From: an uncultured Clostridia bacterium
GTDB taxonomy: Bacteria; Bacillota; Clostridia; Christensenellales; CAG-917
Assembly (NCBI GenBank): GCA_947628855.1
Contig: CANRBM010000002.1
Location: forward strand, 4,884-68,883
DNA: 64,000 nt
Reading direction: 5' to 3'
Part shown: positions 2,658 through 38,555 of the stretch, one piece after another
Position numbering within the stretch: position 1 is the stretch's first letter
How the letters are laid out: each line of letters opens with the position of its first letter
The notes under the pieces: generated by a model
Seen by the model: only the letters and a program-made list of their open reading frames with translations
What the model was told of the DNA's origin: nothing
The model's database searches: none
Made by a program: the position numbers and the translations under genes

Positions 2658-2822
2658 AATTTTCCCTCCTTATTTGAGAAAAAGCGTATGAAACTTTTTT
2701 CTCATACAAATTATAACATCAAAAAGGACAATGTTCAAGAATGTTTTTCTTGACTTAATATGTTTTATTGTATTAAACTTAACTATTATAAACAGCAAAA
2801 AAGTATTTTTTCGAGGCGAGCT

Positions 2823-5243
2823 ATGGATTTCAAGCAGATCGAAGAAAAATGGCAGAAGAAGTGGGCTGAGACAAAGCTCTACAAATTCGACAGGGACAGA
2901 GTGGACAAAAAGTATTATTGTCTCGAGATGTTCTCCTATCCATCGGGCGCGAAGCTCCACGCGGGGCATTGGTACAACTACGGGCCCGCGGACACTTTCG
3001 CGCGGTTCAAGCGCATGCAGGGATACGAAGTTTTCCAGCCCATGGGCTTTGACGCGTTCGGGCTCCCCGCCGAGAATTACGCCATAAAGACGGGCATACA
3101 CCCCGAGGACAGCACGCTTAAAAACATAGCCACTATGGAGGCGCAACTCAAGCGCATAGGCGCGACCTACGATTGGGACTATGAGATAAAGACCTGCCTC
3201 CCAGACTACTACAAGTGGACGCAGTGGATGTTTTTGCAGCTTTTCAAGCACGGACTTGCCTATCAGAAGGAAGCGCCCGTCAATTGGTGCCCATCCTGCA
3301 ATACCGTACTCGCAAACGAGCAAGCGCAGGGCGGAGTGTGCGACAGATGCGGCAGTACCGTCACGCACAAAAATCTGACGCAATGGTTTTTCAAGATAAC
3401 CGCATATGCGGACGAGCTGCTTGACGGACTCGACAAGCTGGATTGGCCCGAAAAGACAAAGCTCATGCAAAAGAATTGGATAGGCAGGAGCTACGGCGGC
3501 GAGATAGTTTTCGACGTCAAGGGCAGCGAGGAGAAGATACGCGTGTTCACGACGCGCGCGGACACGGTGTTCGGCGTGACGTACGTTGTGCTCGCCCCCG
3601 AAAGCCCGCTCGTGGACCGACTCACCACACCCGCACAAAAAGAGGCGGTAGAGGCGTACAGGAAGAAGGCGGCGGAGGCTACCGAGATAGACAGGATGAG
3701 CTCCACGCGCGAAAAGACGGGCGTACCCACGGGCAGTTTTGCGATAAATCCCGTAAACGGCAGGGAAGTGCCCATCCTCGTGGCGGATTATGTCATAGCA
3801 AGCTACGGCACGGGCGCGGTCATGGGCGTCGCGGCGCACGATGAGCGCGATTATGTTTTCGCAAGCAAGCTCGGCTTGCCCATCGAGAGAGTCATCAAGG
3901 GCGAAGAGGGGCAGGACGATACGCTGCCCTTCACGGAGTACGGTACGCTTGTGAACAGCGGCGAATTTGACGGGCTCAAGTCCGAGGACGCAAAACTCGC
4001 CATACTCAAAAAGCTCGAGAGCGAGGGCAAGGGCTGCCTCAAGACGAACTACCGTCTGCGCGATTGGCTTGTGAGTCGTCAGAGATATTGGGGCGCGCCC
4101 ATACCCGTCATACACTGCGAACATTGCGGCGCGGTGCCCGTCCCCGAGAAGGACTTGCCCGTATTGCTGCCAAAAAACGTAAACTTCACGCCGAACGGCG
4201 AATCCCCTCTCAAGAAATGCGACGAATTTATGCACACCACCTGCCCCGTGTGCGGCAGGCCCGCGCTCAGGGACGCGGATACGCTTGACACTTTCGTGTG
4301 CTCGAGCTGGTATTATCTGCGCTATCCCGACAGCAAAAACGCGGACGCGCCCTTTGACAGCGAGTGGATAAACAAGATGCTGCCCGTTGACAAGTACATC
4401 GGCGGCGCGGAACACGCATGTATGCACCTGCTCTACGCGCGTTTCTTCACGAAAGTATTGAGAGACCTCGGCTATTTGAATTTTGACGAACCTTTCCTCT
4501 CCCTTGTGCACCAGGGCACAATTCTGGGACCGGACGGAAACAAGATGAGCAAGAGCAAGGGCAACGTAGTTTCCCCCGACGACAGCATACAGAAGTACGG
4601 CGCGGACGCGTTCAGATTGTATCTGATGTTCGGTTTCAACTATGTCGAGGGCGGGCCGTGGAACGACAGTGGCCTCGAAGCTATATCGAGATTTATCGAC
4701 AGGGTGGAGAGGCTTGTCAAAAAGTGCTTTGAAAACTTTGTATCCGCGCCCTTCGGCAAGGCGGAAAAGGAGCTCAACAGAGTGCGTCACCTCACCATAA
4801 AGAGCGTGACGAACGATCTCGAGCACTTCTCCTTCAACACGGCGGTAGCGAGGCTTATGGAGTTTGTCAACGCGATATACGCCTACGACTCCTCCGTCCC
4901 GCAAAAGAACGCCATGTTCAAGGATTGCGTACGCGACCTCGTTTTGTTGCTCGCCCCCTTTGCGCCGCACTGCGCGGAGGAGCTTTGGGAGATGCTGGGC
5001 GAAAAGTATTCGGTTTTCAACGCGCCGTACCCCGTATGCGACGAGAAAGCGACGGTGCTTGACGAAGTGGAGCTCGCGGTGCAGATAAACAGCAAGATGC
5101 GCGCAAAAGTGACCGTGCCCACGGACGCGGACAGCGCGGCGATAGAGGCGGCGGCTGTGGACGCCGTCAAGGATATGCTTGGGGACAAGCCCGTCAAGAA
5201 GGTCATCGTCGTCAAGGGCAGACTCGTGAACATCATCGCATAA
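2823..5243 (+). CDS. leuS: Leucine--tRNA ligase
   Basis: ORF 2760..5243, start trimmed to ATG 2823 ([14 protein letters not shown]). Class I motifs HAGH (HIGH variant) and KMSKSKGN. Editing-domain insertion and Cys knuckles present. Confidence 0.95.
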
Positions 5244-5344
5244 AAGTGAGGATATCTGCAAAAAGCGGGGTTTATCCTCACAAAATCACATGATAAAGTG
5301 TGCGAAATGAAAATTCTTATTTGCGTATTGTAAAGGAGACGCAT

Positions 5345-6631
5345 ATGTTGGATCTTGTAAAAATCAGGAGCAACCCGCAAGCCGTCGCGGACGCGCTTGC
5401 AAAAAAAGGCTATAAGGCGGACTTTTCCCGCATAATCGAGTGGGACGATCAGCGCAAAGCCACTATCACCGAGATAGAGGCGCTCAAAGCGCAAAAAAAC
5501 AAGATCTCCGCTCAGATCCCCGTGCTCAAAAAGTCGGGGCAGCCTGTGGAGCCCATCTTCGAGGAGATGAGAAAGCTCGGCGACGAGATAGCGGCGGGTG
5601 ACGCAAAGATAAACGCGCTCATTTCAAACATAAACGACGCGCTTGCCGCAATGCCGAATGTCCCCGACGACGACCTGCTCCCCGGCGAGAAGGAGAACAA
5701 TCAAGTCATACGCATAGTAGGAGAACAGCCCAAATTCGACTTTCCGCTCAAAAACCACGTGGACATCTGCACGGAGCTCGGGCTCATCGACTATGAGCGA
5801 GGCGTAAAGCTCAGCGGCAACGGCTTTTGGATATACAGGGGCATGGGCGCGAGGCTGGAGTGGGCGCTGCTCAACTATTTCATAGAGGAGCACCTCTCGG
5901 ACGGCTATGAGTTTATCCTGCCGCCATATCAGCTTGGCTACAATTGCGGGTTCGGCGCGGGGCAATTTCCCAAATTCAGCGACGAAGTATATTGGCTGGA
6001 CGTGGACGAGGACAGGAAGCGCAACAGATTTATGCTGCCCACGGCGGAGACCGCGCTTGTCAATATGTACGCGGGCGAGATAATAGACGAGAGCAAGCTG
6101 CCCATGAAATTCTTCGCGTATTCGCCCTGTTTCAGGAAGGAGGCGGGCAGCGCGCGCACAGAGGAGCGCGGCATGATACGCGGACATCAATTCAACAAGA
6201 TAGAGATGGTGCAATACGCGCACCCCGAACACAGTATGGAAGCGTTTGAGGAGCTTGTGGAAAAGGCGGCGAGGCTTGTGGAAAAGCTGGGACTGCACTT
6301 CCGCATAAGCAAGCTCGCGGCGGGAGACTGCTCCGCGTCCATGGCGAGGACGTATGACGTCGAGCTTTGGATCCCGTCCATGGGCATATACAAGGAGTGC
6401 TCGTCCGTCTCAAACGCAAACGACTATCAAGCGAGGCGCAACAATACGCGCTATCGCGACTCCAAGACGGGCAAACCCGCGTATGTGCATACCTTGAACG
6501 GCAGTGGACTTGCTACGTCCCGCCTCATCCCCGCCATTGTGGAGCAATATCAAAACGCGGACGGCAGCGTCACCGTACCCGAAGCGCTGCGCAAGTTTAT
6601 GGGCGGCATAGAAAAGATAGAAAAACAATAA
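5345..6631 (+). CDS. serS: Serine--tRNA ligase
   Basis: ORF 5300..6631, start trimmed to ATG 5345 (MLDLVKIRSNPQAV) behind an AAAGGAGA RBS. N-terminal coiled-coil arm. Class II motifs FRKEAGSA, GHQFNKIEM and LNGSGLATSR. Confidence 0.95.
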   Translation: MLDLVKIRSNPQAVADALAKKGYKADFSRIIEWDDQRKATITEIEALKAQKNKISAQIPVLKKSGQPVEPIFEEMRKLGDEIAAGDAKINALISNINDALAAMPNVPDDDLLPGEKENNQVIRIVGEQPKFDFPLKNHVDICTELGLIDYERGVKLSGNGFWIYRGMGARLEWALLNYFIEEHLSDGYEFILPPYQLGYNCGFGAGQFPKFSDEVYWLDVDEDRKRNRFMLPTAETALVNMYAGEIIDESKLPMKFFAYSPCFRKEAGSARTEERGMIRGHQFNKIEMVQYAHPEHSMEAFEELVEKAARLVEKLGLHFRISKLAAGDCSASMARTYDVELWIPSMGIYKECSSVSNANDYQARRNNTRYRDSKTGKPAYVHTLNGSGLATSRLIPAIVEQYQNADGSVTVPEALRKFMGGIEKIEKQ

Positions 6632-6705
6632 AATGAAGCAAGGCAGGGGACTTTCCCCTTTTCGCTTTAATAAAAAACCAAAATATTTAAAAAGGGGGAA
6701 ACCTT

Positions 6706-8016
6706 ATGAAAGAAAAACTGCAAAAGTATACCGACGAGGCATACGGCATGGTAGAGTACGCCGCGAACGAGATTGGACAGCGCGTACCCGGCACAGACGG
6801 CGAGAAGAAGTTCCAAGACTATCTTGCGGACAAGTTCAGAGAGATCGGACTTCAGCCAAAGAGTGAAAAATTCATCTTTGCGCCTCGCAGTTCTATCGGC
6901 GGACTTCCCTATGCGGGTTGGGGAGGCATCATTATGGCGGCTCTGCTCATTTTGGCGACGCTTGGCTCGCAACTGGGCGCCGGCATTGGCATAGCGCTGT
7001 ACTTCTTTGCGGCGTTGTACGGCGTCGCGCTGTGGACATGGGTCATCTTGAGCGTTTTCAAGTACAAGACCTGGTTCGACTGGTGCTTTAAACAGGAAGT
7101 CTCATACAACACTTATGCCGAGCTGCTGCCAAAAGATGGCAAATTTGATCACACCATCTACCTCACGGGTCATACAGACACAAGCTGGACGCTCAAGCAC
7201 TCCGCGGCAAGAAACAACTTCATCATCATCGTCCTCAAGATAGGCATAGGCGCAATATCCGTCGGACTCATCACCGCGCTCGCAGTCCTCAATTTCGTGC
7301 TGTATATGATGTATGTCTACATGCGCGGCGCAAGTCCCGAGGTGATGGACGCGATCGGCAAGGCGCTTGACATTTTGTATTACATAGTGGTGTTCGGCTG
7401 TCCCGTGCTCATGGTCGGCTCCTATATGCTCTGCCTCTACAACGAGAAGAATCCCCGCGTCGCGTCTCCCGGTGCAATGGACAACGCTACGGGCGTCGCC
7501 ATCGCGTACGAGACCGTCAAATATTACAAGGAAAATCCCGAAGAGGCTCCCGCAGGTTGTCGTATTATCGCAATGGGTTGTGGCGCTGAAGAGTCGGGCC
7601 TCAGAGGCTCCATCAATTTCGTCCGCGCGCACAAGAACGACGGCATGCTCGAAAACGCCTACCACATCAACATCGACTCCATCGCGGACAAAGAATTCTT
7701 CGAGGTCATTCACGGCGACGCCTGGCTCTGCCCGCACTTCGACAAGAATATGACCGCAATGGCATTCGAGGCTATGAAAGAGGCGGGCATCGAGAAACCC
7801 GGCGACATAGCAAACCCCGTCGGCGGTTGCGACTCCACGCCTTTCCAAAAGGCGGGCGTACCCTCCGTCACCCTCGCCGCGCAAAACCCCGTCATGACGG
7901 ACTATTACCACACCCTCTACGACGTCCCCGAACGCTTTGAAGCGGAGACGGTAGGCAAGGGCCTCGACATCACTCTGCGCCTCATCGACAAGATCGAAAA
8001 GAGCCGCAAAGCGTAA
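6706..8016 (+). CDS. M28-family zinc peptidase with an integral-membrane N-terminal half
   Basis: 436 aa. Metal-ligand motifs GAMDNATGVA and GCGAEESGLRGS are typical of M28 aminopeptidases. Several hydrophobic segments lie between aa 65 and 250. Confidence 0.75.
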   Translation: MKEKLQKYTDEAYGMVEYAANEIGQRVPGTDGEKKFQDYLADKFREIGLQPKSEKFIFAPRSSIGGLPYAGWGGIIMAALLILATLGSQLGAGIGIALYFFAALYGVALWTWVILSVFKYKTWFDWCFKQEVSYNTYAELLPKDGKFDHTIYLTGHTDTSWTLKHSAARNNFIIIVLKIGIGAISVGLITALAVLNFVLYMMYVYMRGASPEVMDAIGKALDILYYIVVFGCPVLMVGSYMLCLYNEKNPRVASPGAMDNATGVAIAYETVKYYKENPEEAPAGCRIIAMGCGAEESGLRGSINFVRAHKNDGMLENAYHINIDSIADKEFFEVIHGDAWLCPHFDKNMTAMAFEAMKEAGIEKPGDIANPVGGCDSTPFQKAGVPSVTLAAQNPVMTDYYHTLYDVPERFEAETVGKGLDITLRLIDKIEKSRKA

Positions 8017-8025
8017 GTCGTTTAT

Positions 8026-8239
8026 GTGGGGCGCCGCCCCACGCCCCGGCAAAGGGCGCTTTGCTCTTTGGGTTCCAAGCTAAAAACGCGCAAACGTCGT
8101 GACTTTTGTCACTAGTTTGCGCGTTTTGTTTTGTCTGCAATGTCCAAAATTCCTGTGAGAGAGTTTGATTTTGACGTACATATAGTCCGAGGTTTTTACT
8201 AAAAAACCGGGGAATTCTTAGACTACGCTCAGAATGACA
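8026..8239 (-). repeat. Intergenic modular repeat (IMR, my label), copy 1, reverse orientation
   Basis: Read on the minus strand it has module E (TGTCATTCTGAGCGTAGTCTAAGAATTCCCC), the CTCACAGGAATTTTG box, the hairpin AAAACGCGCAAACTAGTGACAAAAGTCACGACGTTTGCGCGTTTTT (8082-8127), then AGCTTGG and GC hairpins. Homologous to copies at 19838-20193 and 21116-21426. Confidence 0.8.
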
Positions 8240-8255
8240 AATAAAAACAAATCGT

Positions 8256-8416
8256 TCGGACTAAGCGCAACGCAAATATCAAGTTCTCACGCAGGAGTTT
8301 TGATGCTTGCACGCAATAAAAAAACGTGAGCGACGGCAAGAAATTGCCTAGCTCGCGTTTTTAGCTTTGGATCGCAAAGGGCAAAGCGCCCTTGCCGAGG
8401 CGTGGGCGAGCAGCCC
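8256..8416 (+). repeat. IMR copy 2, forward orientation (head-to-head with copy 1)
   Basis: TCGGAC..ATATCAAGTTCTCACGCAGGAGTTTTG box, hairpin AAAAAAACGTGAGCGACGGCAAGAAATTGCCTAGCTCGCGTTTTT (8318-8362), AGCTTTGG, GCAAAGGGCAAAGCGCCCTTGC, GGCGTGGGCGAGCAGCCC. Confidence 0.8.
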
Positions 8417-8527
8417 GCCGAGTATAAATACCGCGGTTTTAACACTGTTTTAACAAATATATTTCATAATTTGTCCATACTAATCGTATATAAGCGCGCG
8501 CCCTTTGCAAATTGCCGAGGATTGCGA

Positions 8528-8556
8528 TTGACTTTTTTATACTAACTTAATATAAT
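8528..8556 (+). promoter_or_regulatory. Sigma-70-type promoter of ftsH
   Basis: TTGACT (8528-8533), 17 nt, TATAAT (8551-8556). It lies about 50 nt upstream of the ftsH ATG, which has an AAGGAGG RBS. Confidence 0.6.
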
Positions 8557-8607
8557 TAAAAACGTATAACACATTTATGCGTTTGACGGCTGCTTGAAGG
8601 AGGACAG

Positions 8608-10677
8608 ATGAAAGCAACTACAAGACGAACGATTTTTATTATCGCCGCGATCGCGCTCGTGATATTGGCGATCGTTTTGGCGTATACGCTGACCGCGCCC
8701 AAAGAGCTTGGCTATTCGGGCATGGTGGAAGGCAGCAATACGCTTGAATCCCTTATAAAGGAAGGCAAGGTCTCCGCGCTGAGAGTTGACGGCAGCTACA
8801 GCGTGGATATATTGCTCGAGGGAGAGGGCAGAGTGCGCTACTATGCGAACATCCCCGCAAGGAGCGTGCTCGCCGAGGACGTAAAAGCGTGGGCGGATGA
8901 AGTCGAAAACCCCGAAATTAAAAGCAAAATCACCTCTATGCCCATAGAGTACAACGACCCCTCGCGCGGCTCGATGCTCAGCAGTCTGCTGGTCCCCATC
9001 ATTTTGTATGCTATACTCTTCTTTGTATTTATGGTCATTCTGCGCAAGTCGGCGGGCGTAAACAACCAGGCTTTGAACTTCGGCAAGACGACAGCAAACC
9101 AAGTGCGCGATATCAAGGTGCGTTTCAGCGACGTAGCGGGCGCGGACGAGGAAAAGCAGGAGCTGCAAGAGATCGTAGACTTTTTGAAATATCCCAAAAA
9201 ATATATGGATATCGGCGCGCGTATCCCGCACGGCGTTTTGCTCGTAGGTCCTCCGGGCACAGGTAAGACGTTGTTCGCAAAGGCTGTCGCGGGCGAAGCT
9301 AACGTGCCTTTCTTCTCGATAAGCGGCTCCGACTTCGTTGAAATGTTCGTAGGCGTGGGCGCGTCGCGTGTGAGAGACCTGTTCGATCAAGCGAAGAAAA
9401 ATATGCCCTGTATAATCTTTATCGACGAGATAGACGCCGTAGGCAGACAGCGCGGCGCGGGCTTAGGCGGCGGCAACGACGAGCGCGAACAGACTTTGAA
9501 CCAATTGCTCGTACAAATGGACGGTTTCGAGTCGTCAAGCTCTATAATCGTCATGGCGGCGACCAACCGCTCCGACATACTAGACCCCGCTCTCATGCGC
9601 CCGGGCAGATTTGACAGGCAGATATATGTCAACATTCCCGACGTCAAGGGCAGAGAGGCTATATTCAAGGTGCATGCGCGCAATAAGCCGCTCGCGTCCG
9701 ACGTCAATTTCAAGAGCCTTGCCCGCCTCACTTCGGGCTTTACGGGCGCGGATATCGAGAATATTTTGAACGAAGCCGCCATACTTGCGGCAAGAGAAAA
9801 CCGCAAACTTATATCTATGAAGGATATAAGCGAGGCGATAAACAAGGTCATGGCGGGTCCCGCGAAGAAGAGCCGCCTCGTGACGGAATCGGACAAGCGT
9901 ATCACCGCATACCACGAGAGCGGACACGCCATCATCGCAAAGAAGATGAAGCACTGCGACAGCGTGCACGAGGTCAGCATAATTCCGCGCGGCATGGCGG
10001 CGGGCTACACCATCACGCTGCCCGAGACGGACGACAACCATATGACGAAGGGCAAGCTGCTTGACAACATTGCTATGCTACTCGGCGGGCGCGCGGCGGA
10101 AGAACTTGTGATAAAGGACATTTCCACGGGCGCGTCAAACGACATACAGCGCGCAAGCAAGCTCGCAAGGAAGATGGTCACGGAGTGGGGCATGTCCGAC
10201 GAGATAGGCAATATGTACCTTGGCGCGAGCGAGGAAGTTTTCCTTGGCAGAGACTATCAGACTCAACTCAACTACAGCGACGACGTAGCCGCAAAGATAG
10301 ACGTCGAGGTCAAGAAGATATTGGACGAGCAATATCGGATCGCCATCAACATTTTGCGCGAGAACAGGGCCATAATGGACGCTATGGTCAAGCTGCTGTA
10401 TGAGAAAGAGACAATCTATGAGGACGAGATAGACGCGCTGTTCGGCGAGGAAAGCACAGACAAGGACGGCATATTCTCCTCGAGGGTCAACCGCGGCGAG
10501 GCGGACGCGACCCCGGGCGAAACACCCGCGGACGCAAAACCCGCAAAGAGCAAGCGCAAGAAGGACGCAGGAACCGCGACGGACGCAATCCCCCTTCCTG
10601 CTCCCGAAGAGCACGGCGAGACCCCTACGGACGAATCTCCGAAGGACGATAAGTCGGGCGAGGACGACGACAAATAA
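8608..10677 (+). CDS. ftsH: ATP-dependent zinc metalloprotease FtsH
   Basis: 689 aa. N-terminal TM pair, Walker [32 protein letters not shown], zinc site HESGHAI. Acidic low-complexity C-terminal tail. Confidence 0.95.
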
Positions 10678-10767
10678 AAGTAAGATGCGGGCAGAGCAAA
10701 TTTGCTTGTCTGCATCTTTTAAAATGCACAAAACTCACCACATATCACATATTTTGAGGATAGGACT

Positions 10768-12159
10768 ATGAAGATATACAACACTCTCACGCGCAGGAAG
10801 GAAGATTTTGTGCCTCTTGAGGAGGGCAAGGTGAAGATGTACGCCTGCGGCATCACGGTGTCGGGCGAGGCGCACATCGGACACGCCTATCAAGCGCTCA
10901 TCTACGATATAATCCGCAAATATCTCGAGAAGGCAGGCTATGACGTCAAGTACGCACGCAACTATACCGACGTGGACGACAAGATAATCGCAAAGTCGCA
11001 CGAGACGGGTATACCCGCGCTCGAATACGCCGCCATGATGATAGAAAACATAGACGCGCTCATGCGCCGTTTCGAGGTGGACGACCCCACCGTATGGCTT
11101 AAAGCGACGGAGAACATCGACAATATAATAGATTTTGTGGAAAGCCTCATAAAGAGCGGGCACGCCTATCCTACCGAGCGCGGCGACGTGTATTTCAAGG
11201 TGGACAGCTTTAAGGGCTACGGCAAGCTGAGCGGCAGGCGCACCGAGGACGCGTACGAGAGCGTACGAATAGAAAATGAGGAGAACAAACAGGACCCCCT
11301 CGACTTCGCGCTGTGGAAATCCGCAAAGGAAGGCGAGATATATTGGGAGTCCCCGTGGGGCAAGGGCAGACCCGGCTGGCACATAGAGTGCTCCGCTATG
11401 AACCGCGCCGCTTTCGGCGAGCAGATAGACATCCACGGCGGCGGCAGGGACCTTGTTTTTCCTCATCACGAGAATGAGATCGCGCAGACGGAAGCCCTCA
11501 CGGGCAAGCAATTTGCAAAATATTGGATACACAACGGGCTCATCAAGGTCAACGGACAGAAGATGAGCAAATCTTTGGGCAACAGCCTTCTGCTCAAAGA
11601 CCTGCTTGACGAGTATTCTCCCGAAACCATCAAATACGCGCTTTTGCAGACAAATTATCGCGGCGACATCAACATCACGGACGAGCTTTTCCCCGAGGCA
11701 GACAAACACATGTACGGCTTTTACAAGACTCTTGCGGACGTAGAGGCGAGCGGCTTGAAAGCGGACGGCGGCTCCCCCGATATAGACGCTGAATTTGATC
11801 GCGCCATGGACGACGATTTCAATACCGCAAAGGCGCTTGCGGACCTGTTCGGGCTCTTCAAACGCATAAAGGCAAAGCTCGCCGCGAGCGACGCGAGCGC
11901 GGCAAACGACGCGGAGCAGATAAAGAAAACCTATGGCTTGCTCGGGCTGTTCAGAAGAAAGCCCGCAGAGTTTATAGCCTATTATGAGGCAAAGCAGAAG
12001 AGCGATATCCCCGCCGAAGTGCTCCGCCTCGCCGACGAACGCGCAGCGGCAAAAGTCGCCAAAGATTGGGCGACCGCGGACGCCCTCCGTGCAAAAATAA
12101 CCGCCCTCGGCTACTCCGTCAAGGACACAAAAGAGGGACCTGTCATCGAAAAACTGTGA
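10768..12159 (+). CDS. cysS: Cysteine--tRNA ligase
   Basis: 463 aa. HIGHAY and KMSKSLGN class I motifs. MKIYNTLTRRKEDF N-terminus is typical of CysRS. Confidence 0.95.
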   Translation: MKIYNTLTRRKEDFVPLEEGKVKMYACGITVSGEAHIGHAYQALIYDIIRKYLEKAGYDVKYARNYTDVDDKIIAKSHETGIPALEYAAMMIENIDALMRRFEVDDPTVWLKATENIDNIIDFVESLIKSGHAYPTERGDVYFKVDSFKGYGKLSGRRTEDAYESVRIENEENKQDPLDFALWKSAKEGEIYWESPWGKGRPGWHIECSAMNRAAFGEQIDIHGGGRDLVFPHHENEIAQTEALTGKQFAKYWIHNGLIKVNGQKMSKSLGNSLLLKDLLDEYSPETIKYALLQTNYRGDINITDELFPEADKHMYGFYKTLADVEASGLKADGGSPDIDAEFDRAMDDDFNTAKALADLFGLFKRIKAKLAASDASAANDAEQIKKTYGLLGLFRRKPAEFIAYYEAKQKSDIPAEVLRLADERAAAKVAKDWATADALRAKITALGYSVKDTKEGPVIEKL

Positions 12160-12194
12160 TTTTGAATCTACGATATTAAAATATCGGCAAATTC

Positions 12195-12220
12195 AAGAGG
12201 GCGCTCCCGCCCTCTTTTCC
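12195..12220 (+). terminator. Intrinsic terminator after cysS
   Basis: AGAGGGCG-CTC-CGCCCTCT stem-loop followed by TTTTCC, 36 nt after the cysS stop. Confidence 0.65.
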
Positions 12221-12285
12221 TTGACTTGCTTTAGCAAAACAATGGCTCGAACAGAGTTTGCATTAATCGCTGACATTGATAGCGT

Positions 12286-12433
12286 CAATATAAGCTCTCA
12301 CGCAGGAGTTTTGGCAATTGCGAACAATTAAAAAGTGCGAATTAGGCGAATGAAGTGCCGAAGTTCGCGCTTGTTAGCTTAGGCTCGGCAAAGGGTTATC
12401 AGCCGTTTGCCGAGGTGTGGAGCAGCACTCCAC
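12286..12433 (+). repeat. IMR copy 3, forward (core only, degenerate hairpin)
   Basis: CAATATAAGCTCTCACGCAGGAGTTTTGG box, AAAAAGTGCGAA..TTCGCGCTTGTTAGCTTAGG, GGCAAAGGGTTATCAGCCGTTTGCC, GAGGTGTGGAGCAGCACTCCAC. Confidence 0.7.
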
Positions 12434-12457
12434 ATAGAGTGTGCGGGGCGGATCCGT

Positions 12458-13096
12458 TCAAATTGCGTCTTTCAGCAATAAAGCCACTTCATCTGCCATT
12501 TTTTCAACATAAAGTGGCGATACGGACATAAGTTGCATAAGGGCGTCGCCATTGTTTTCGGCGACGACGCCCAAAATACCGACGTCTCCGAAGCGCTCGT
12601 TTTTGCCTTTGATAGCGGCGGGGCAGACTCCGTCGGAGCGGATGACTATTTTGCCGACGTTGTCCTTTGTGCCGAGGCTGGCGTCCACGGCTATGAAGAG
12701 CGCGCCCGCGTGCGCCGTCTTGATAAAGTCGAGCCATTCCTTCATATTTTTGCCGTTGACGGAGCAATTCTCCGTGCCGTAGACGAAGGCGGGGATATTG
12801 TAGCGAGTGGAGAGCAGGGTGCCCACCATGGGGCCCAAAGAATCGCCGGATATGGACATAGTGCCGAAACAGACTATTACGGTCTGCCGCTTTCTGGAAA
12901 GTAGCGAGGGCGTGTAAAACGGCGCGGCGGGAGCGGGTCGATGTTCGGCGGGCGTTTTTGCGGCGCGCTTGCTCCTTGCGGACGGGATCTTTGCCGTCCG
13001 TTTTTTTGCGGGGGCGGTTTCGGCGGCGTCGGGGAGAGGGGAAGAGTCTTTCAATGCGGCTTGAAGTAAAGCCTGTTCGGGGTCTTTTTTTCTCAT
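12458..13096 (-). CDS. yyaC: Sporulation protein YyaC-family (GPR-like endopeptidase fold) with a basic low-complexity N-terminal extension
   Basis: The track ORF starts at a TTG (13147). I prefer ATG 13096. Core VIVCFGTMSISGDSLGPMVGTLL...FIAVDASLG matches the YyaC/DUF1256 pattern. The first ~75 aa from ATG 13096 are Ala/Pro/Lys-rich. Confidence 0.7.
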   Translation of the reverse strand: MRKKDPEQALLQAALKDSSPLPDAAETAPAKKRTAKIPSARSKRAAKTPAEHRPAPAAPFYTPSLLSRKRQTVIVCFGTMSISGDSLGPMVGTLLSTRYNIPAFVYGTENCSVNGKNMKEWLDFIKTAHAGALFIAVDASLGTKDNVGKIVIRSDGVCPAAIKGKNERFGDVGILGVVAENNGDALMQLMSVSPLYVEKMADEVALLLKDAI

Positions 13097-19017: not shown

Positions 19018-19055
19018 CGCCCGCCGCTTGATCCACATCAAACGGCGGGCGTTTT
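19018..19055 (+). terminator. Intrinsic terminator after the 1555-aa gene
   Basis: CGCCCGCCG (19018-19026), 16-nt loop, CGGCGGGCG (19043-19051), then TTTTAT. Confidence 0.65.
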
Positions 19056-19102
19056 ATGTCTCCATGCAGGGCTACTCGCCCCGCACGCCCCAATGTTGGC
19101 TC

Positions 19103-19240
19103 CTCGCCCACACCGCGGCAAGGGACTTCGTCCCCTGCACCCCAAGCTAAAAACGCGAGCTAGGCAAATACTTGCCGTCGCTCGCGTTTTTTGATTGTGT
19201 GTAAGGTACAAACTCCAGCGTGAGAGCTTTGATAATTGCG
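19103..19240 (-). repeat. IMR copy 4, reverse orientation
   Basis: The plus strand reads CTCGCCCACACCGCGGCAAGGGACTTCGTCCCCTGCACCCCAAGCT, then hairpin AAAAACGCGAGCTAGGCAAATACTTGCCGTCGCTCGCGTTTTTT (19149-19192), then CAAACTCCAGCGTGAGAGCTTTGATAATTG (reverse of the CTCACGC box). Confidence 0.8.
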
Positions 19241-19529
19241 TTTGTCTTGTCCAAGCGAATAAACGCAACCTCTGTCCGAGTGTGCCTGTACACGGACGGA
19301 CGTATTGTCCGAGCGACCCCGCGGAGCGAGCGGTTTCACGCTAAGTACGCAGTGAGGGCGTGTCTGCACCCCGCGAAATCACTCCGTAATTTCCGAAAAA
19401 CCATTTCTCAAAACTGTCGCAGGCACATCTTCACGACGAAAGATGATCAAAATCAATGTGATTTTTATGTTTGTATAAAATAAATCACGGCGCACATACT
19501 AGCCATAGCACAAAAAAGGAGGTGCATTT

Positions 19530-19766
19530 ATGGACGAAAACAATATTGTGAGAAAGCTCGCTCAGCTTACAAACATGAATGTGATGGTGCTTTTCATACT
19601 GATTTCTTTCCTTGCTCTGTCGATCGGACTTGCATTCTATTTCCTTGTCCCGGGCAGCGTTGGCTACGGCGTCGGCATCACGATGTTTATAGTGGCGTCA
19701 CTTCTGTTTGTGATCGGCGAGATCAACTATTTTATGAAGTCGAAACGCATCGATTGGCAAAACTAA
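19530..19766 (+). CDS. 78-aa two-TM small membrane protein, unknown function
   Basis: Strong RBS AAGGAGG 7 nt upstream of the ATG. Two clear hydrophobic helices (VMVLFILISFLALSIGLAFYFLV and GVGITMFIVASLLFVIGEI). Confidence 0.6.
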   Translation: MDENNIVRKLAQLTNMNVMVLFILISFLALSIGLAFYFLVPGSVGYGVGITMFIVASLLFVIGEINYFMKSKRIDWQN

Positions 19767-19776
19767 AGAGACAAGC

Positions 19777-19823
19777 AAAAAAATCGCGCGCCCGTACACA
19801 TGTGCAGACGCCCGATTTTTTTT
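19777..19823. terminator. Bidirectional terminator-like hairpin after the small membrane-protein gene
   Basis: A-run, imperfect GC-rich stem (ATCGCGCGCCCG..CAGACGCCCGAT), then T8. The stem has mismatches. Confidence 0.4.
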
Positions 19824-19837
19824 GTTTTCCATAAATT

Positions 19838-20193
19838 TACCCCACAAAAACATTTCTTATTTTTGCGGGGACCCCGAGTCGCTCTACATGACACAATATA
19901 TTTCCTGTCATTTCGAGCGTAGTCGAGAAATCCCCGGGGTTTTAAGAAAAACCTCGGACTAGCGTGTCGTAAATATCAAGCTCTCACGCAGGAGTTTTGA
20001 TATTTGCAATCAATCAAAAACGCGCAGACTAGGCAATGAAAGAGCCTACTCTGCGCGTTTTTAGCTTGGGATTGCAAAGGGCAAAGCGCCCTTTGCCGGG
20101 GCGTGGGGCAGCGCCCCATCTGGGGCGTGCGGGGGCGAGGAGCCCTGCGTGGGGCAACGAAGTCCCTTGCCGAGGTGTGGATCAGAGCTCCAC
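19838..20193 (+). repeat. IMR copy 5, forward, full-length
   Basis: Module H TACCCCACAAAAA..TTTTGCGGGGACCCCG (19838-19876). Module E TGTCATTTCGAGCGTAGTCGAGAAATCCCC. Box ATATCAAGCTCTCACGCAGGAGTTTTG. Hairpin 20016-20062, AGCTTGGG, GCAAAGGGCAAAGCGCCCTTTGC, GGCGTGGGGCAGCGCCCCA and further GC hairpins ending GTGGATCAGAGCTCCAC. Confidence 0.85.
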
Positions 20194-21115: not shown

Positions 21116-21426
21116 GGGGATTCCTCGACTGCGCTACGCTCCGCTCGGAATGACAATAGTTGTCATGTTGAGCTTGTCGAAACATCCCCCTGTTTTACTC
21201 CCACAAAAACACCGTGTGTTTTTGTGGGATAAAAGGAAGCAATCCCTGGTCTTAGCAAATAACTCAGACTATATTTCCGTAAATATCAAATTCTCACGCG
21301 GGAGTTTTGGCACTTGCAATCAAATTCAAAATGCGCGAACTAGTGACAAAAGTCACGACATTCGCGCATTTTTAGCTTGGGGTGCAGGGGACGAAGTCCC
21401 TTGCCGGAGAGTGGGGCAGCGCCCCA
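21116..21426 (+). repeat. IMR copy 6, forward, full-length
   Basis: GGGGATTCCTCGACTGCGCTACGCTCCGCTCGGAATGACA. TGTCATGTTGAGCTTGTCGAAACATCCCC. Hairpin H variant TACTCCCACAAAAAC..TTTTTGTGGGA (21196-21230). Box ATATCAAATTCTCACGCGGGAGTTTTGG. Hairpin 21328-21373 with loop ACTAGTGACAAAAGTCACGAC. AGCTTGGGG, GC hairpins, GTGGGGCAGCGCCCCA. Confidence 0.85.
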
Positions 21427-21437
21427 AAAATAGTTCG

Positions 21438-31305: not shown

Positions 31306-34300
31306 ATGGAAAAGTATTTCAATAAAGCCGAGGTGTATCAGCTGAACGTTCAACAAAAGCACGGCGCGGGCTTTCCTCTCGACGAGAGCGGAAATAAGTG
31401 CGTCTGCCTGCTCAACGGCGAATGGGATTTCAAGTATTTCGTGTCCGCTGACATGCTCGACCTCTCGCCCGAGGCTATGGACAAGATATCCGTGCCTTCC
31501 GAGTGGCAGATAAAGGGCTATGACAAACCTATCTATACGAACATAAACTATCCAAAGCCTATAGACGCAAAGCATACGGGCAAGCCGCACATCGACGAGG
31601 CGACAAACACCTGCGGACTGTATCGCCGCACCTTTACGCTTGACAAGATAGAGGGCAGCGTACATATAAACTTCGCCGCGAACAGTTGCGCGCAACTTTA
31701 CATCAACGGCAACTTCGTCGGCTACAGCGAGGATACCTTCGACTATCAAGAGTACGACATCACGCCGTATGTGCGCGTCGGCGAGAACGAGGTCAAGATA
31801 GTTGTTTTCCGCTATTGCATCGGCAGTTATCTCGAGGACCAGGATATGTGGAGGCTTTCGGGGCTCTTCCGCGACGTCACGCTCATATTCGAACCCGCCG
31901 TGAGGATAGCGGACGTCTTTGCGCGCAGCGAGTTTTCGGACGGCTATAAAAAGGCAAAACTTATCGTTGGCGCGGATATTTCAAACGTCGCGGACAAGAC
32001 GGCAGAAGATGTCCTTCTTGTTATGGATCTTTTGGACGCCGACGGCAAGGTCAAGGCGCATGCCGAATTCAACGTCGTAGGGCTTGATGAAGGGGAGAGC
32101 AAGCACGTCGCCGCCAAAGAGAGCGTGGACGCGCCCGCGCTTTGGAGCAGCGAACATCCGTATCTTTATCGTCTGCGCCTTACCCTCTACACCGTCAAGG
32201 GAGGGAAGAAGACATTCGCGGATATGCGCGAACTAAATTTCGGTTTCCGCGAGGTCAAGATAGTGCCCATGATCGACGGCAAGGAGCCCTATATAATGCT
32301 CAACGGGCAGAAGCTCAAGATAAGAGGCGTCAACCGTCACGAATTTCATCCCGATTTCGGACACGCCGTCCCCGCGGAGTACACCGAGCGCGACATAATA
32401 CTGCTCAAGCGCAACAACGTGAACTCCATACGTACGAGCCACTATCCCAACAGCCGCGCGTTCTATGACCTCTGCGACAAGTATGGCATCATGGTCATGA
32501 GCGAGAACAACCTCGAAACGCACGGCATCGCGACGCGCGTACCCAAAAACAGCAAATTCTGGACGGAGCGCATATGCTGGCGCATGCAAAATATGGTGCG
32601 CACCTATCGCAATCACCCCTGCATACTCTTCTGGTCCCTCGGCAACGAGAGCGGCTACGGCAAGTCTTTCGTACAGGCGAAGAAGGCGGCGCTCGAGCTC
32701 GACACCACCCGCCCCATACACTATGAGCCCGACTTCCATATCAAGACTTCGGATATTGTCAGCGAGATGTACACCAAAGAGGAGCAAATGGAGGAGATCG
32801 CAAACAACAGGTTCCACCTCCACTCCATGGCGCTTTGGGCGCCTTTAGGGCACATTCTCACTCCGCATGATTACAAGGATAAACCCTTCATACAGTGCGA
32901 ATACGCCCACTGCATGGGCAACAGCCTCGGCAACTTCGAGGACTATTGGAAACATTACCGCGCGCATGACAGGCTGTGCGGCGGCTACATCTGGGACTTT
33001 GCGGATCAAGGCATAAAGAGAGTACACCCCGACGGCACTATCGAATACACCTATGGCGGAGATTGGGGCGATACGCCAAACGACGGCACCTTCGCCTTCA
33101 ACGGCATAGTGCGCGCAGACCGCACTCCCAACCCCGCCTTCTACGAAGTCAAAAAAGTGCAGCAGCAGGTGAATTTCTCGCTTGACGGCAGCAAGCTCAA
33201 ACTCATCAACGAATATATGTTCACATCTCTCGACGCTTTCGGGCTCACTTTGGAGCTTGTGCATGGTGGCGCCCCCGTAAAGACCTACACATTGCAGATG
33301 CCCGCCATAAAGCCGCTCTCAAGCGGAGAGTTGGCGCTCCCGTACGACCTTGTCGCCGAGGCGAAAAAGCTGGACGGCGAAGTATATATCAACTGCTATG
33401 CGAGCGTATTGCATGCCGACAAAGTATTCAAAGAAGGGGATATTGTTGCGGAGGAGCAGCTCGTGCTCAAGGATTATTCTCCCAAGACATTCGCCGTCGC
33501 GGACGGAAAGACGGTTTTCCAAGAGGACGGCAAAGTCCTGCTCGAGCACGGCAATATCAAGGCTACCGTGGACCGCAACAGCGGCTTTGTCACATCGCTC
33601 GTCATAGACGGCAAGGAAAAACTGTCCGCGCCCATACGTCCCAACTTCTGGCGCGCGCCCATAGACAACGATAAGACTCCGCAGGTCCCGCCCATCGCAA
33701 GACGTATTCTGGGCAAGGTGTATTTCAAGACTTGCGCCGAGAGGCTTGTCAAATCCAAGATGACCTGCACGGATAAGGCGGTAGAGATAGACTGGTCGTG
33801 TATGCCAAAGCTCGCCGCCCTCAAGACGGTATACGAGATAGGCGAGGACGGCTTGCACATCAAAATGCGCGTCAAAAACAATATGTTCAGCCTGCCGCGC
33901 TACGGGTTCAGAATGCAGCTCAGCGCCTCGGACGACGTTAAATTCTACGGCAGAGGACCGCACGAAAACTATTGCGACCGCAAAGCCGCCGCAAAACTCG
34001 GCATATATGAGGGCAGCGTCGCCGATTTCGAGCATAACTACCTCGTCCCGCAGGAGAACGGAAACCACTGCGATACGCGCTACGTCACAGTCGGCGGAGC
34101 CGAGGGCGTCACGTTTGCCGCAGTCGAAAAACCAATAGAATTCAGCGTCCACGACTATACGCAGGAAGAGCTTGAGACGGCAACGCACGCGCACGAGCTC
34201 GCGCACGGCGGCACTATCGAGGTCTGCATAGACGGCGCACAACGCGGAGTCGGCGGAGACGTCCCCGCTCTCGCCTGCACCAAGAAGAGATACAAGATAT

Positions 34301-34341
34301 TGCCCAACCGCACCCACGAACTCAGTTTCACGATAAAATGA
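31306..34341 (+). CDS. lacZ: Beta-galactosidase, glycoside hydrolase family 2
   Basis: 1011 aa. HYPNSRAFYDLCDKYGIMVMSENNLETHG, acid/base WSLGNESGYG, nucleophile region IQCEYAHCMGNS. C-terminal small-chain domain present. Confidence 0.9.
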   Translation: MEKYFNKAEVYQLNVQQKHGAGFPLDESGNKCVCLLNGEWDFKYFVSADMLDLSPEAMDKISVPSEWQIKGYDKPIYTNINYPKPIDAKHTGKPHIDEATNTCGLYRRTFTLDKIEGSVHINFAANSCAQLYINGNFVGYSEDTFDYQEYDITPYVRVGENEVKIVVFRYCIGSYLEDQDMWRLSGLFRDVTLIFEPAVRIADVFARSEFSDGYKKAKLIVGADISNVADKTAEDVLLVMDLLDADGKVKAHAEFNVVGLDEGESKHVAAKESVDAPALWSSEHPYLYRLRLTLYTVKGGKKTFADMRELNFGFREVKIVPMIDGKEPYIMLNGQKLKIRGVNRHEFHPDFGHAVPAEYTERDIILLKRNNVNSIRTSHYPNSRAFYDLCDKYGIMVMSENNLETHGIATRVPKNSKFWTERICWRMQNMVRTYRNHPCILFWSLGNESGYGKSFVQAKKAALELDTTRPIHYEPDFHIKTSDIVSEMYTKEEQMEEIANNRFHLHSMALWAPLGHILTPHDYKDKPFIQCEYAHCMGNSLGNFEDYWKHYRAHDRLCGGYIWDFADQGIKRVHPDGTIEYTYGGDWGDTPNDGTFAFNGIVRADRTPNPAFYEVKKVQQQVNFSLDGSKLKLINEYMFTSLDAFGLTLELVHGGAPVKTYTLQMPAIKPLSSGELALPYDLVAEAKKLDGEVYINCYASVLHADKVFKEGDIVAEEQLVLKDYSPKTFAVADGKTVFQEDGKVLLEHGNIKATVDRNSGFVTSLVIDGKEKLSAPIRPNFWRAPIDNDKTPQVPPIARRILGKVYFKTCAERLVKSKMTCTDKAVEIDWSCMPKLAALKTVYEIGEDGLHIKMRVKNNMFSLPRYGFRMQLSASDDVKFYGRGPHENYCDRKAAAKLGIYEGSVADFEHNYLVPQENGNHCDTRYVTVGGAEGVTFAAVEKPIEFSVHDYTQEELETATHAHELAHGGTIEVCIDGAQRGVGGDVPALACTKKRYKILPNRTHELSFTIK

Positions 34342-34393
34342 ACCGTGTGTCTGACGTAGCTTATAAAATCACGATCAAAAAAGCAAACATCAC

Positions 34394-34435
34394 AAAAAAA
34401 TGTCCGCCCCATTTTTGAAAGGGCGGACGTTTTTA
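34394..34435. terminator. Bidirectional intrinsic terminator shared by lacZ and the TAC operon
   Basis: A7, GTCCGCCC (34402-34409), 11-nt loop, GGGCGGAC (34421-34428), then GTTTTTA. Confidence 0.7.
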
Positions 34436-34448
34436 TAGGTGCATGGAT

Positions 34449-34835
34449 TCAATCGTCGATCAATTTGGTGATATTGAGCGCAGGAATGATTATAGGCGCC
34501 ATTCCAGGTTGTGCAGTTAATGAAGTGATTTGACTTCTGATAAAGGGGAATATAATCGCAGCACCGTTTATTTTTGCCATATCGTCTCGACTTTCCTCAT
34601 CTTGAACTGCTTGTGTAAATACGAAAACTCCGATAGCTATCACAGACAAAGATATGTCGTCTTTTGCAATATCGACGGTCAACTGCACTTCGTATGCATC
34701 GTCGACATGTCGCAACTTGCGCGAAACGTCGATCTTCAGTTCGCCGCCTGCAACAACAGCCTCTCTCTTAAATGTGATTGATGGAAAGTACAGATTTTTC
34801 AACTGCATTTCCGCTCTCATATCATTGATGTCCAT
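34449..34835 (-). CDS. SecB-like chaperone (third gene of a TAC module)
   Basis: ORF 34449..34904, start trimmed to ATG 34835 behind GAGGAGGA (5-nt spacing), 10 nt after the upstream stop. By-eye alignment to E. coli SecB: MQLKNLYFPSITFKRE vs FQIQRIYTKDISFEAP; DDAYEVQLTV vs DDVYEVVLRV; IIFPFIRSQITSLTAQPGMAPIIIPALNITKL vs [32 protein letters not shown]. Confidence 0.75.
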   Translation of the reverse strand: MDINDMRAEMQLKNLYFPSITFKREAVVAGGELKIDVSRKLRHVDDAYEVQLTVDIAKDDISLSVIAIGVFVFTQAVQDEESRDDMAKINGAAIIFPFIRSQITSLTAQPGMAPIIIPALNITKLIDD

Positions 34836-34845
34836 AAATTCCTCC

Positions 34846-35403: not shown

Positions 35404-35419
35404 TGTTTTCACCTCTCAA

Positions 35420-35803: not shown

Positions 35804-35829
35804 TTTTCACACATCCTCCTTGTTTATTT

Positions 35830-35858
35830 ATTATATCAATCTGCGGCCGGCCTGTCAA
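35830..35858 (-). promoter_or_regulatory. Consensus sigma-70 promoter of the TAC operon
   Basis: On the minus strand: TTGACA (35858-35853), 17 nt (contains GGCCGGCC), TATAAT (35835-35830). The predicted leader to GTG 35803 is only about 20 nt. Confidence 0.7.
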
Positions 35859-35870
35859 TGATAATTTTGC

Positions 35871-35880
35871 ACCAATTGGT
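35871..35880. promoter_or_regulatory. Candidate MqsA operator palindrome
   Basis: Perfect palindrome ACCAATTGGT, 12 nt upstream of the -35 box. It resembles the E. coli MqsA site ACCT-N-AGGT. Confidence 0.4.
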
Positions 35881-38466: not shown

Positions 38467-38477
38467 CACATAGCAAT

Positions 38478-38554: not shown

Positions 38555-38555
38555 G

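Follow-up and report, generated by a model that had tools for sequence, protein, structure and literature searches.

Mosaic hairpin repeats at gene ends and a repeat-bounded ftsH-cysS inversion in an uncultured gut Clostridia bacterium

Introduction

Why does the spacer between an M28 peptidase gene and ftsH in an uncultured Clostridia bacterium from the rabbit gut fold as one long palindrome, and why do its component hairpins recur in six other intergenic regions? The spacer (positions 8026-8416) lies in a 64,000-nucleotide (nt) stretch of DNA, hereafter the window, that comprises positions 4,884 to 68,883 (forward strand) of contig CANRBM010000002.1 in assembly GCA_947628855.1. An earlier note, made from the sequence alone, described seven intergenic regions assembled from shared modules and took them for a mobile or recombining family, similar to REP elements or MITEs, that distributes terminators at gene ends. 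The analysis reported here indicates that the palindrome consists of two diverged copies of a unit of roughly 165 nt, that this unit probably belongs to a lineage-specific family of interspersed mosaic palindromic repeats of the REP/BIME, NIME/Correia and BOX/SPRITE kind, and that one of the two breakpoints of a 3.8-kb inversion falls at the palindrome.

The window is ordinary chromosomal DNA, and no transposase, integrase or phage gene is found within it. The genes that flank the repeats are housekeeping genes, encoding seryl-, leucyl- and cysteinyl-tRNA synthetases, the M28 peptidase, FtsH, a DUF1256/YyaC-like protein, DnaG, RpoD, NrdD and a thioredoxin-reductase-like protein. Comparisons were made with about 0.4 Mb of related DNA, consisting of loci from other assemblies and relatives that are designated by L-numbers. 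The closest references are two metagenome-assembled genomes (MAGs), Lapin-001__bin22 (CANPWB01; about 95-96% identity to the window; loci L028 and L060) and Lapin-001__bin50 (CANQBO01; about 85-89%; locus L026); L059 is from a bin1 relative.

Results

A fixed-order core underlies the seven repeat regions

All-against-all BLAST of the window gave repeat-covered intervals at 8023-8418, 12245-12450, 19062-19392, 19836-20193, 21116-21432, 39307-39441 (with E-module arrays on to about 39666) and 55364-55472, which are exactly the seven regions of the earlier note. The core sequence of one module, the box (TCTCACGCNGGAGTTT), occurs five times within two mismatches compared with 0.11 expected from shuffles, and module sharing among all seven regions is far above chance. 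The description of shared modules used in both orientations was borne out. The modules are not freely shuffled as had been proposed, however, since six copies in the window align as a core of roughly 165 nt in which module order is fixed: the box hairpin, an A-run/hairpin/T-run module (T), AGCTTGG, and two GC hairpins (G1 and G2).

The core starts at its 5' side with CTCGGACA..CGTAAATATC, followed by the box hairpin AAGCTCT-CACGCA-GGAGTTT and TTGCA.ACAA. The box is an imperfect dyad (AAGCTCT-N6-GGAGTTT) that is extended to 13-bp arms in some copies, and arrayed upstream of it are units of about 24-nt periodicity (CTCGGACA..CGTTAAT) that look like arrayed candidate protein-binding sites. T consists of an A-run, a long bulged hairpin and a T-run, with AGCTTGG next; its interior exists in about five discrete sequence types within constant flanks and is bimodal between copies, being either identical or unrelated. 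G1 occurs in two types, GCAAAGGGC..GCCCTTTGC or GCAGGGGAC..GTCCCTTGC, while G2 is GTGGGGC..GCCCCAC with the end ..CAT. Median pairwise identity of the core copies is only 71% (maximum 93%), and the core is judged to be old for this reason.

The 5' side of the core is variable and joins E, H, M or unique DNA. H is a hairpin of roughly 40 nt (TA-CCCCAYAAAAT-loop-ATTTTRYGGGG-ACCCCGAT), and E occurs mostly as an inverted pair. H, E, M and extra G hairpins are attached to the 5' side of the core in varying combinations or stand alone, and the resulting composite regions reach 1 kb with modules in both orientations (e.g., L018 3345-4347 and L017 705-1689). These regions have the alternating-orientation clusters and recurrent linker motifs that define mosaics of the REP type. 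An extra module of about 200-250 nt was seen on opposite strands in L032 (about 1010-1230) and L017 (about 830-1110), and in strain L032 it sits between T/G1 and G2.

Two of the six window cores form the palindrome. The left arm (8027-8191, minus strand; full-length nhmmer match, E = 9e-44) contains G2 at 8026-8042, G1 at 8048-8066, a type B T hairpin at 8081-8127 followed by TTTTGTTTTG, and the box at about 8143-8172; its G2 hairpin begins 10 nt past the stop codon of the M28 peptidase gene (8016). The right arm (8255-8417, plus strand; E = 6e-44) has a type A T hairpin and lies upstream of a promoter-like site for ftsH (8528-8556). An E unit, GGGAATTCTTAGACTACGCTCAGAATGACA, occupies the centre (8210-8239, plus strand; direct-repeat families D11 and D17). 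The third core (12268-12432, plus strand; E = 2e-41) is located between the convergent cysS and DUF1256 genes with its G2 end 26 nt from the DUF1256 stop codon, and its orthologue is L026 7401-7571. The fourth (19096-19255, minus strand; E = 1e-40; T type A) lies downstream of a gene for a 1555-amino-acid (aa) protein and is identical in L020. The fifth (19953-20118, plus strand; T type D) has a different set of modules in its place in strains L020 and L032, and the sixth (21263-21426, plus strand; T type B; found by nhmmer) has its G2 end 12 nt from the stop codon of a NUDIX gene.

Positions 8020-8422 fold as one long imperfect palindrome with a DNA minimum free energy (MFE) of -118 kcal/mol (z = -11.9), as the earlier note had claimed for this head-to-head arrangement. 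The arms are two diverged copies and not a fresh duplication, because their complementarity is only about 72-75% and their T hairpins are of different types. Loop variants are shared with distant copies, as had also been noted: 8075-8128 is 91% complementary to 21327-21380, and 8299-8370 is 86% complementary to 19141-19212.

The hairpins are conserved as structures

Profile searches (nhmmer) of the window plus sampled loci yielded 38 distinct full-length copies of the core and 60 distinct copies of H, and pairing statistics were obtained from alignments of 34 cores and 47 H copies. In the cores 93.2% of cells are standard-paired, compared with 32-58% when the partners are slid. Ten pairs are altered on both sides, and the covariation score was matched by none of 500 shuffles, a statistic that overstates independence since the copies are mutually related. 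In H 93.8% of cells are paired and five pairs are altered on both sides. The compensatory changes that the earlier note had pointed out in H recur across the alignment, one pair being CG in 27 copies and UA in 12, and an A.C mismatch becomes G.U on the other strand in 21 of the 47 copies. Motifs of T types A and B swap arms on the same strand; a "flipped hairpin" relation between the two types was considered and rejected, there being no true inversion.

The mismatches distinguish the two strands. The box and G1 have G.U pairs on the core(+) strand only, and 25 of the 34 cores are more stable as (+) RNA, whereas two conserved A.C mismatches in H are G.U pairs on its other strand, so that H favours its (-) strand. 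If the core were a multicopy small RNA transcribed from the (+) strand, with the box hairpin followed by T as its terminator, the better folding of the box and G1 on that strand would be accounted for, and a box hairpin followed by a terminator does resemble small RNA architecture. A conserved promoter is lacking, however, since the 5' neighbour varies, and a promoter scan finds nothing conserved upstream. G1 and G2 are equally conserved yet lie beyond the terminator. Rfam does not recognise the core: the sole match in the whole window at gathering thresholds is tRNA-Arg(CCT) at 38478-38554, and searches of the repeat regions at E values up to 5 gave only sub-threshold generic hairpin (miRNA-model) noise and no family match. 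The small RNA reading is therefore regarded as very improbable.

Cores lie at gene ends and carry a predicted two-way terminator

The stop codon of a long open reading frame (ORF) faces the G2 end of the core within 165 nt in 27 of the 34 cores, and in 12 of them the distance is only 7-14 nt with a junction of the form (T)AT/GTGGGGC (the slash marks the boundary). Two cores in the window, those starting at 8255 and 19953, face the 5' regions of genes. Since the G2 end points at the stop codon, the transcript of the gene would read G2, then G1, and then T with its U-run. When T is read from the opposite side, a U-run again follows the hairpin.

T runs and hairpin energies were measured directly on the 34 copies. 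An A-run of at least 4 precedes the T hairpin in all of them and a T-run of at least 4 follows it in 33, and the median MFE of the hairpin is -25.6 kcal/mol. On both strands T thus has the GC-rich stem-loop followed by a U-run that is characteristic of intrinsic terminators, and the terminator-like character that had been ascribed to these hairpins is upheld as a prediction. Downstream of the M28 peptidase gene no terminator-like structure other than T is present, while cysS (12196-12220) and a large gene (19020-19055) have their own terminator ahead of the core.

Such siting has precedents. REPs lie downstream of ORFs and at times supply stop codons (PMC3733652), a REP works both as a terminator and as a stabiliser (bioRxiv 10.64898/2026.03.23.713779), and among other repeats BOX has a modular build, while SPRITE repeats, which resemble terminators, are enriched at the 3' ends of genes (PMC3049150). 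Judged by sequence and folding, T most likely acts as a bidirectional intrinsic terminator that would insulate convergent and tandem genes. By analogy with REPs, the GC hairpins G1 and G2, which have no U-run, are most likely stabilisers of transcript 3' ends.

The core is confined to one lineage

A scan for the box in one genome per species gave 18 exact matches in bin22, 4 in bin50, 1 in Lapin-002__bin1 and 1 stray match, so that the exact box is confined to three rabbit-gut Clostridia MAG species apart from the stray. The box is absent from the viral contigs of IMG/VR, and JGI metagenomes yielded only two chance matches, to the 22-mer alone. In the relatives CANQNQ01 and CANQCC01 no modules are found near orthologues of window genes, and lineage-level absence of modules was seen at L059, L033 and L036. 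The earlier note had named two outcomes incompatible with its interpretation, restriction of the copies to the window without polymorphism among strains and lack of conserved structure. Neither was found, because the family is genome-wide in the source lineage and polymorphic between strains.

E and H have a different range. Unrelated IMG/VR contigs with a G+C content of 50-63% contain E-like units (TGTCATTCCGAGCGNAGNCGAGGAATC) and H-like hairpins (GGGGTCCCC.CAAAAT..ATTTTG.GGGG), often in several copies (L039 2850-2900 versus 5170-5260; L041; L043-L047; L054-L058); the H-like hairpins were found with a looser pattern, the strict H pattern giving no match in IMG/VR. These E-like and H-like units appear to be widespread short hairpin repeats. 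Because only they occur in unrelated contigs, the core is considered lineage-specific and E and H members of wider hairpin families. A literature search with the E sequence string returned only an unrelated miRNA paper and no description of the repeat.

The core family is a previously unnamed family of a known class and a member of no named family, as the earlier note had supposed. It is placed outside the named families because it lacks both the GTAG or CGTC tag of REPs and the terminal inverted repeats of MITEs and matches no Rfam family. Integron attC sites were considered and rejected: RYYYAAC ... GTTRRRY sites are not present, the flanks being AAAAACGCG ... CGCGTTTTTAGC, both orientations occur, the neighbours are housekeeping genes and there is no integrase. 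CRISPR, retrons, group II intron domains and guide-RNA scaffolds of insertion sequence (IS) ends were likewise rejected, with no associated genes and no matching motifs.

The palindrome marks a breakpoint of the ftsH-cysS inversion

Gene order in bin50 (L026) and bin22 (L028) is M28(+), cysS(-), ftsH(-), whereas in the window it is M28(+), ftsH(+), cysS(+). BLAST synteny and gene orientations identify a 3.8-kb ftsH-cysS segment (8426-12192, plus strand) that is inverted relative to the two sister genomes and bounded by the repeat clusters 8026-8416 and 12268-12432. L026 2033-7351 corresponds to window 2731-8059, L026 7422-11503 to window 12415-8426 (inverted), and L026 from 12722 on to the window from 12457 on; similarly, L028 8349-12147 corresponds to window 12192-8426 (inverted). 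Because the alignment limits fall there, the breakpoints are placed in the arrays of G hairpins found after the stop codons of the M28 peptidase and DUF1256 genes, and the arrays at the two breakpoints are mutually inverted. A different gene follows ftsH in bin22.

Since the sources are short-read MAGs, in which mis-assembly at repeats is a classic problem, the palindrome and the inversion could in principle be artefacts of collapsed or mis-joined repeats. Each arrangement is present in at least two independent assemblies, however, which makes assembly error unlikely: the window arrangement is repeated in L023 and L024 from other samples, where the same palindrome has 5 differences in about 440 nt, the bin50 arrangement is repeated in L027 and the bin22 left junction in L029. 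The repeats can moreover be spanned, since their identity is only 70-90% and their length does not exceed 0.4 kb. An artefact is thus the least credible of the explanations considered.

The inversion might instead be programmed, with the box and the periodic CTCGGACA..CGTTAAT units serving as sites for a recombinase or nucleoid protein. The dyad symmetry of the box, its 13-bp arms in some copies and the arrayed units upstream are suggestive of such sites, and in bin22 inverted cores flank the invertible segment (L028 7349-7514, minus strand, and 12725-12886, plus strand). The breakpoints nevertheless lie in the G-hairpin arrays, away from the box, and no recombinase gene is nearby. Both orientations are known only from different strains or species and never from one sample, and the inversion gives no obvious switch because the inverted segment carries its own promoter and terminator. 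A programmed inversion is on these grounds highly unlikely.

Repeat copies serve as dispersed homology for rearrangement, and further rearrangements, among them the change of the gene after ftsH in bin22, cluster at spacers that carry repeats. A PfkB-like gene and a small gene for a 78-aa protein switch neighbours and orientation among relatives. The 78-aa protein appears from its sequence to be a two-helix membrane protein, and its cassette (window 19473-19820, gene 19530-19766; loci L030, L031, L033 and L036) is 80-90% conserved. In five related genomes the cassette has different neighbours (a large surface protein gene plus the PfkB gene, a GHMP kinase gene, or cysS), and in L031 it is inverted relative to the PfkB gene.

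Modules are exchanged, and H inserts

In the comparison of the window with bin22, the stretch 19838-20118 is swapped for another module set, while the 900 nt to its left are identical. The swapped set has three H units instead of H plus E, another T type, and a G2 with compensating changes. Strain L032, which is 99.4% identical to the window, is a recombinant of both versions and has an extra module in addition. Orthologous cores differ in T type (e.g., window 12268 versus L026 7401), and T types A and B each occur with either G1 type, giving all four possible combinations. These module swaps, the L032 recombinant, the T-type differences between orthologues and the four T/G1 combinations argue for short-tract recombination between copies. 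Together with the inversion breakpoints in repeats, they sustain the earlier view of a recombining family.

The claim of mobility stands for H. An H unit is nested in the loop of a type C T hairpin (L014 3052-3259), another in an E unit of bin22 (L060, about 3822-3896), and an H-like unit in an E-like unit of IMG/VR contigs L039 and L041, where a sister copy is intact. Two tandem H hairpins (55378-55470, minus strand) also lie at the end of the thioredoxin-reductase-like gene (55445-56422), the distal one reaching into the gene: the H units start right after a conserved ..AYVD, and the final 8 codons (AIPHKITA) together with the stop codon are provided by H at 55445-55470. The bin22 orthologue ends ..STP plus stop within a long-loop H variant, and the bin1 orthologue (L059) has its own native tail, KVLH plus stop, and no H. 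H is therefore an inserting element, and the evidence for insertion is limited to this module. No target duplication is visible at the nested H sites, where the "empty" references are paralogous copies.

For the core, the claim of mobility is not upheld, because no empty site, target-site duplication or terminal inverted repeat was seen. Orthologous loci were compared for pairs with and without a core, and rearrangement and divergence left lineage-level absence only. One could suppose that the core never moved, and that native terminators and untranslated regions (UTRs) at gene 3' ends were made alike by concerted evolution, i.e., gene conversion between intergenic regions plus selection for the same RNA or protein partner. 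The copies are old (median identity 71%), their positions after the M28 peptidase gene, cysS and the 1555-aa gene are conserved between species, the junction is strongly tied to stop codons, and mosaic assortment is typical of conversion; in addition, neither terminal inverted repeats nor target duplications nor a transposase were found. Some 28 or more copies in one small MAG, compared with near absence in sister genomes that have the orthologous genes, nonetheless point to a spreading process, and conversion makes no copy where a homologous tract is missing. Some genes (cysS and the large gene) already have their own terminator upstream of the core, the cores at 8255 and 19953 face gene 5' regions, and the associated modules clearly insert. 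A core that was never mobile is thus a less likely alternative.

At the other extreme, the core could be an actively targeted, portable 3'-end cassette. A putative enzyme acting on single-stranded hairpins would place the G2 end first, 7-14 nt past stop codons or into the loops of terminators and other hairpins, and the host would co-opt the core as a standard bidirectional terminator-stabiliser. The T interior would be an exchangeable slot for nested mini-palindromes, and H and E would form a cross-taxon hairpin mobilome. This proposal is speculative and thought rather unlikely; if it were true, the core would be a terminator-targeting and terminator-donating non-autonomous element without a described counterpart.

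The earlier likening of the family to REPs and MITEs holds for the mosaic palindromic character shared with REPs, but the MITE hallmarks of terminal inverted repeats and target duplication were not found. A classical MITE would be a deletion derivative of an IS with a DDE transposase, mobilised in trans. High copy number, intergenic siting, strong secondary structure and nesting are typical of MITEs (background in PMC3049150), and the A/T-rich TAT/GTGGGG-type junctions could conceal a TA-type duplication. Still, the core ends, CTCGGACAA... and ...GCCCCACAT, are not inverted repeats, the core borders E, H, M or unique DNA on its variable 5' side, no target duplication can be seen, the core is GC-rich rather than AT-rich, and no IS with related ends was found in the roughly 0.4 Mb examined. 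A MITE origin of the core is accordingly improbable.

Other repeat modules and variable loci in the window

An M module with three GTCCGAGCG-type motifs (19246-19392, plus strand) has BLAST matches in at least 12 loci and was also found by nhmmer. The region of core copy 5 begins with an H hairpin (19838-19877, plus strand; family D9) and an E unit (19906-19935, minus strand; pair I11, 93% complementary to 39411-39440), and the core is followed by an additional G3-G1-G2 hairpin array (20119-20193, plus strand; families D4 and D7). Ahead of core copy 6 lie an inverted E / E' pair (21116-21190, plus strand; pair I13 and reading of the sequence), in which a variant arm changes ATTCC/GGAAT to ATGTT/AACAT with the stem retained, and an H-like hairpin, CCCACAAAAACACCGTGTGTTTTTGTGGG (21197-21233, plus strand; family D10, pair I12). 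Two tandem H hairpins (39318-39396, plus strand; family D9) are followed by E / E' arrays (39411-39666, plus strand; family D6 and reading of the sequence). These arrays hold a 135-nt tandem duplication (39428-39531 and 39563-39666, 88% identical), which lies just upstream of a giant surface-protein gene.

That gene (39855-48629) encodes a repeat-rich surface protein of 2924 aa and is carried by the window at a tRNA-Arg site. Synteny with bin22 stops just to the right of tRNA-Arg(CCT) (window about 38402-38720), and in relative L052 a tyrosine integrase and a LexA-like repressor are encoded beside an alpha-galactosidase gene. The tRNA-Arg region looks like a tRNA-linked integration or variable site. 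In-frame imperfect repeats at 45100-46950 of the 2924-aa gene, with spacings that include 237 and 510 nt, are probably repeated protein domains. The first 1000 aa of the protein have no Pfam match; a strain homologue in L053 has a recorded match to Pfam MBG_2. A homopolymer of about 9 G in the spacer between tRNA-Arg and the H/E cluster (about 39205-39213) could be prone to slippage.

Two other loci are variable or unusual in composition. A GH5 cellulase gene (1211-2730) is missing at the same position in bin22 and bin50, which have about 180 nt between tmk and leuS, and there are no repeat modules at the edges of the gene. A block of low G+C content (0.42) at 34000-36000 has small ORFs on the reverse strand with weak MqsA-antitoxin-like and SecB-like matches, and may be a toxin-antitoxin or foreign islet.

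Discussion

The reading that the observations probably favour is that of a lineage-specific family of mosaic palindromic repeats whose modules have different histories. Small hairpins, H certainly, would spread by insertion, often into the loops of other hairpins and without obvious target duplication, a pattern that fits a putative enzyme acting on single-stranded hairpins. The old core would now be maintained and rearranged chiefly through short-tract recombination or gene conversion among its copies. In 3' intergenic DNA, T would terminate transcription in both directions and the GC hairpins would stabilise 3' ends. The copies provide the dispersed homology used in rearrangements such as the one that left the palindrome at a junction of the ftsH-cysS inversion. 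What is distinctive about the family is its long fixed-order core with a predicted two-way terminator, the tight docking of G2 at stop codons, the hypervariable T interior and the role at an inversion of essential genes.

Several observations weigh against this reading. The core has neither terminal inverted repeats nor a visible target duplication nor a clean empty site among the orthologous loci compared, although E pairs and H do carry inverted arms. Neither a RAYT/IS200-like nor any other transposase is found in the window or in the called genes of sampled loci, and Pfam searches of about 45 window ORFs, 10 repeat-flanked ORFs of sampled loci and 10 ORFs of IMG/VR contig L041 gave no Y1, DDE or serine transposase, all being housekeeping or unassigned. 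Core copies are at most 93% identical and there is no sign of current core activity. The strand signals conflict, as the box and G1 favour core(+), the strand opposite the mRNA of the adjacent gene, and H favours (-). The mutual relatedness of the copies also counts here, even though the compensatory types remain plain in the alignments. Finally, a simple terminator scan flagged no T hairpins within the stem and loop limits of the scanner; the hairpins were missed because their stems are long and bulged.

With this family, the range of mosaic repeats of the REP/BIME type grows to include an uncultured gut Clostridia lineage, in which the unit is exceptionally complex, with four hairpins in fixed order that include a predicted two-way terminator. 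It provides a concrete case of repeats shaping genome architecture, in that a 3.8-kb inversion involving two essential genes is marked by one repeat cluster, and gene order and module content at neighbouring loci vary among strains that are 95-99% identical. For metagenomics, such repeats are likely causes of contig breaks and strain-level structural variation, and with models of them, terminators and 3' UTRs in these MAGs would be better annotated. Should its terminator function be confirmed, the T hairpin would offer a compact part for ending transcription in both directions.

Comparison with known repeat systems

A close likeness is to the enterobacterial REP/BIME elements of the REPIN/RAYT system, which are short imperfect palindromes with conserved strand-distinguishing mismatches (PMC2817692, PMC3116915, PMC3733652, bioRxiv 10.64898/2026.03.23.713779). 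Like the present modules they are extragenic, are sited mostly downstream of ORFs and between genes in convergent or tandem order, and at times provide the stop codon, and they form clusters of alternating orientation with linker motifs that give a mosaic; roles as terminators, mRNA stabilisers and recombination substrates have been proposed. H, with 60 distinct copies of about 40 nt, has the form expected of REPs, as do G1, G2 and T: extragenic imperfect palindromes of 20-40 nt in high copy. In tagged REPs one end of the palindrome bears an unpaired tetranucleotide, GTAG or CGTC (PMC3733652). H, G1, G2 and T differ in having no such end tag, GTAG being found only inside the E loop, and the consensus flanks are TA/CCCC..GGGG/ACCCCGAT for H, GG(C/T)/GTGGGGC for G2 and GGGAT/GCAAAGGGC for G1. 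The family further differs from REP/BIME in that no gene for RAYT (Y1 HUH transposase) was found in the window or sampled loci, in that its main unit, which is long at about 165 nt, joins four different hairpins in fixed order, among them a canonical A-run/hairpin/T-run terminator, and in its host, a Clostridia lineage from a group unmentioned in the 2013 REP survey.

The pneumococcal BOX and SPRITE repeats share with the family a Firmicute host, and the architecture of BOX (boxA-boxB(n)-boxC) is modular with internal modules that are optional or repeated (PMC3049150). SPRITE is an interspersed repeat shaped as a Rho-independent terminator with enrichment at gene 3' ends, and both are old, largely dormant, mutually nested and sometimes alter ORF ends (PMC3049150). 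The likeness is architectural only (PMC3049150). The terminal inverted repeats of BOX pair together, and the ends of the core do not. In contrast to SPRITE, which is a single hairpin, T is embedded between the box and GC hairpins and is terminator-like on both strands.

Insertion into REP loops is known for elements of the IS1397/ISKpn1 type, and transposition of single-stranded hairpins for those of the IS200/IS605 type. Loop insertion and strand-specific mismatches are expected of elements that are handled as single-stranded hairpins. H resembles these systems in its occurrence inside T and E loops without obvious duplication and in its strand-specific mismatches; it differs in being only about 40 nt and non-coding, with no cognate enzyme found in the sampled DNA. 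Correia elements carry 26-bp terminal inverted repeats and generate a TA target duplication, neither of which is seen in the core family. With the Correia/NIME repeats of Neisseria the family nevertheless shares its character as abundant, intergenic, composite hairpin repeats that affect transcript ends and genome rearrangement (background partly in PMC3049150).

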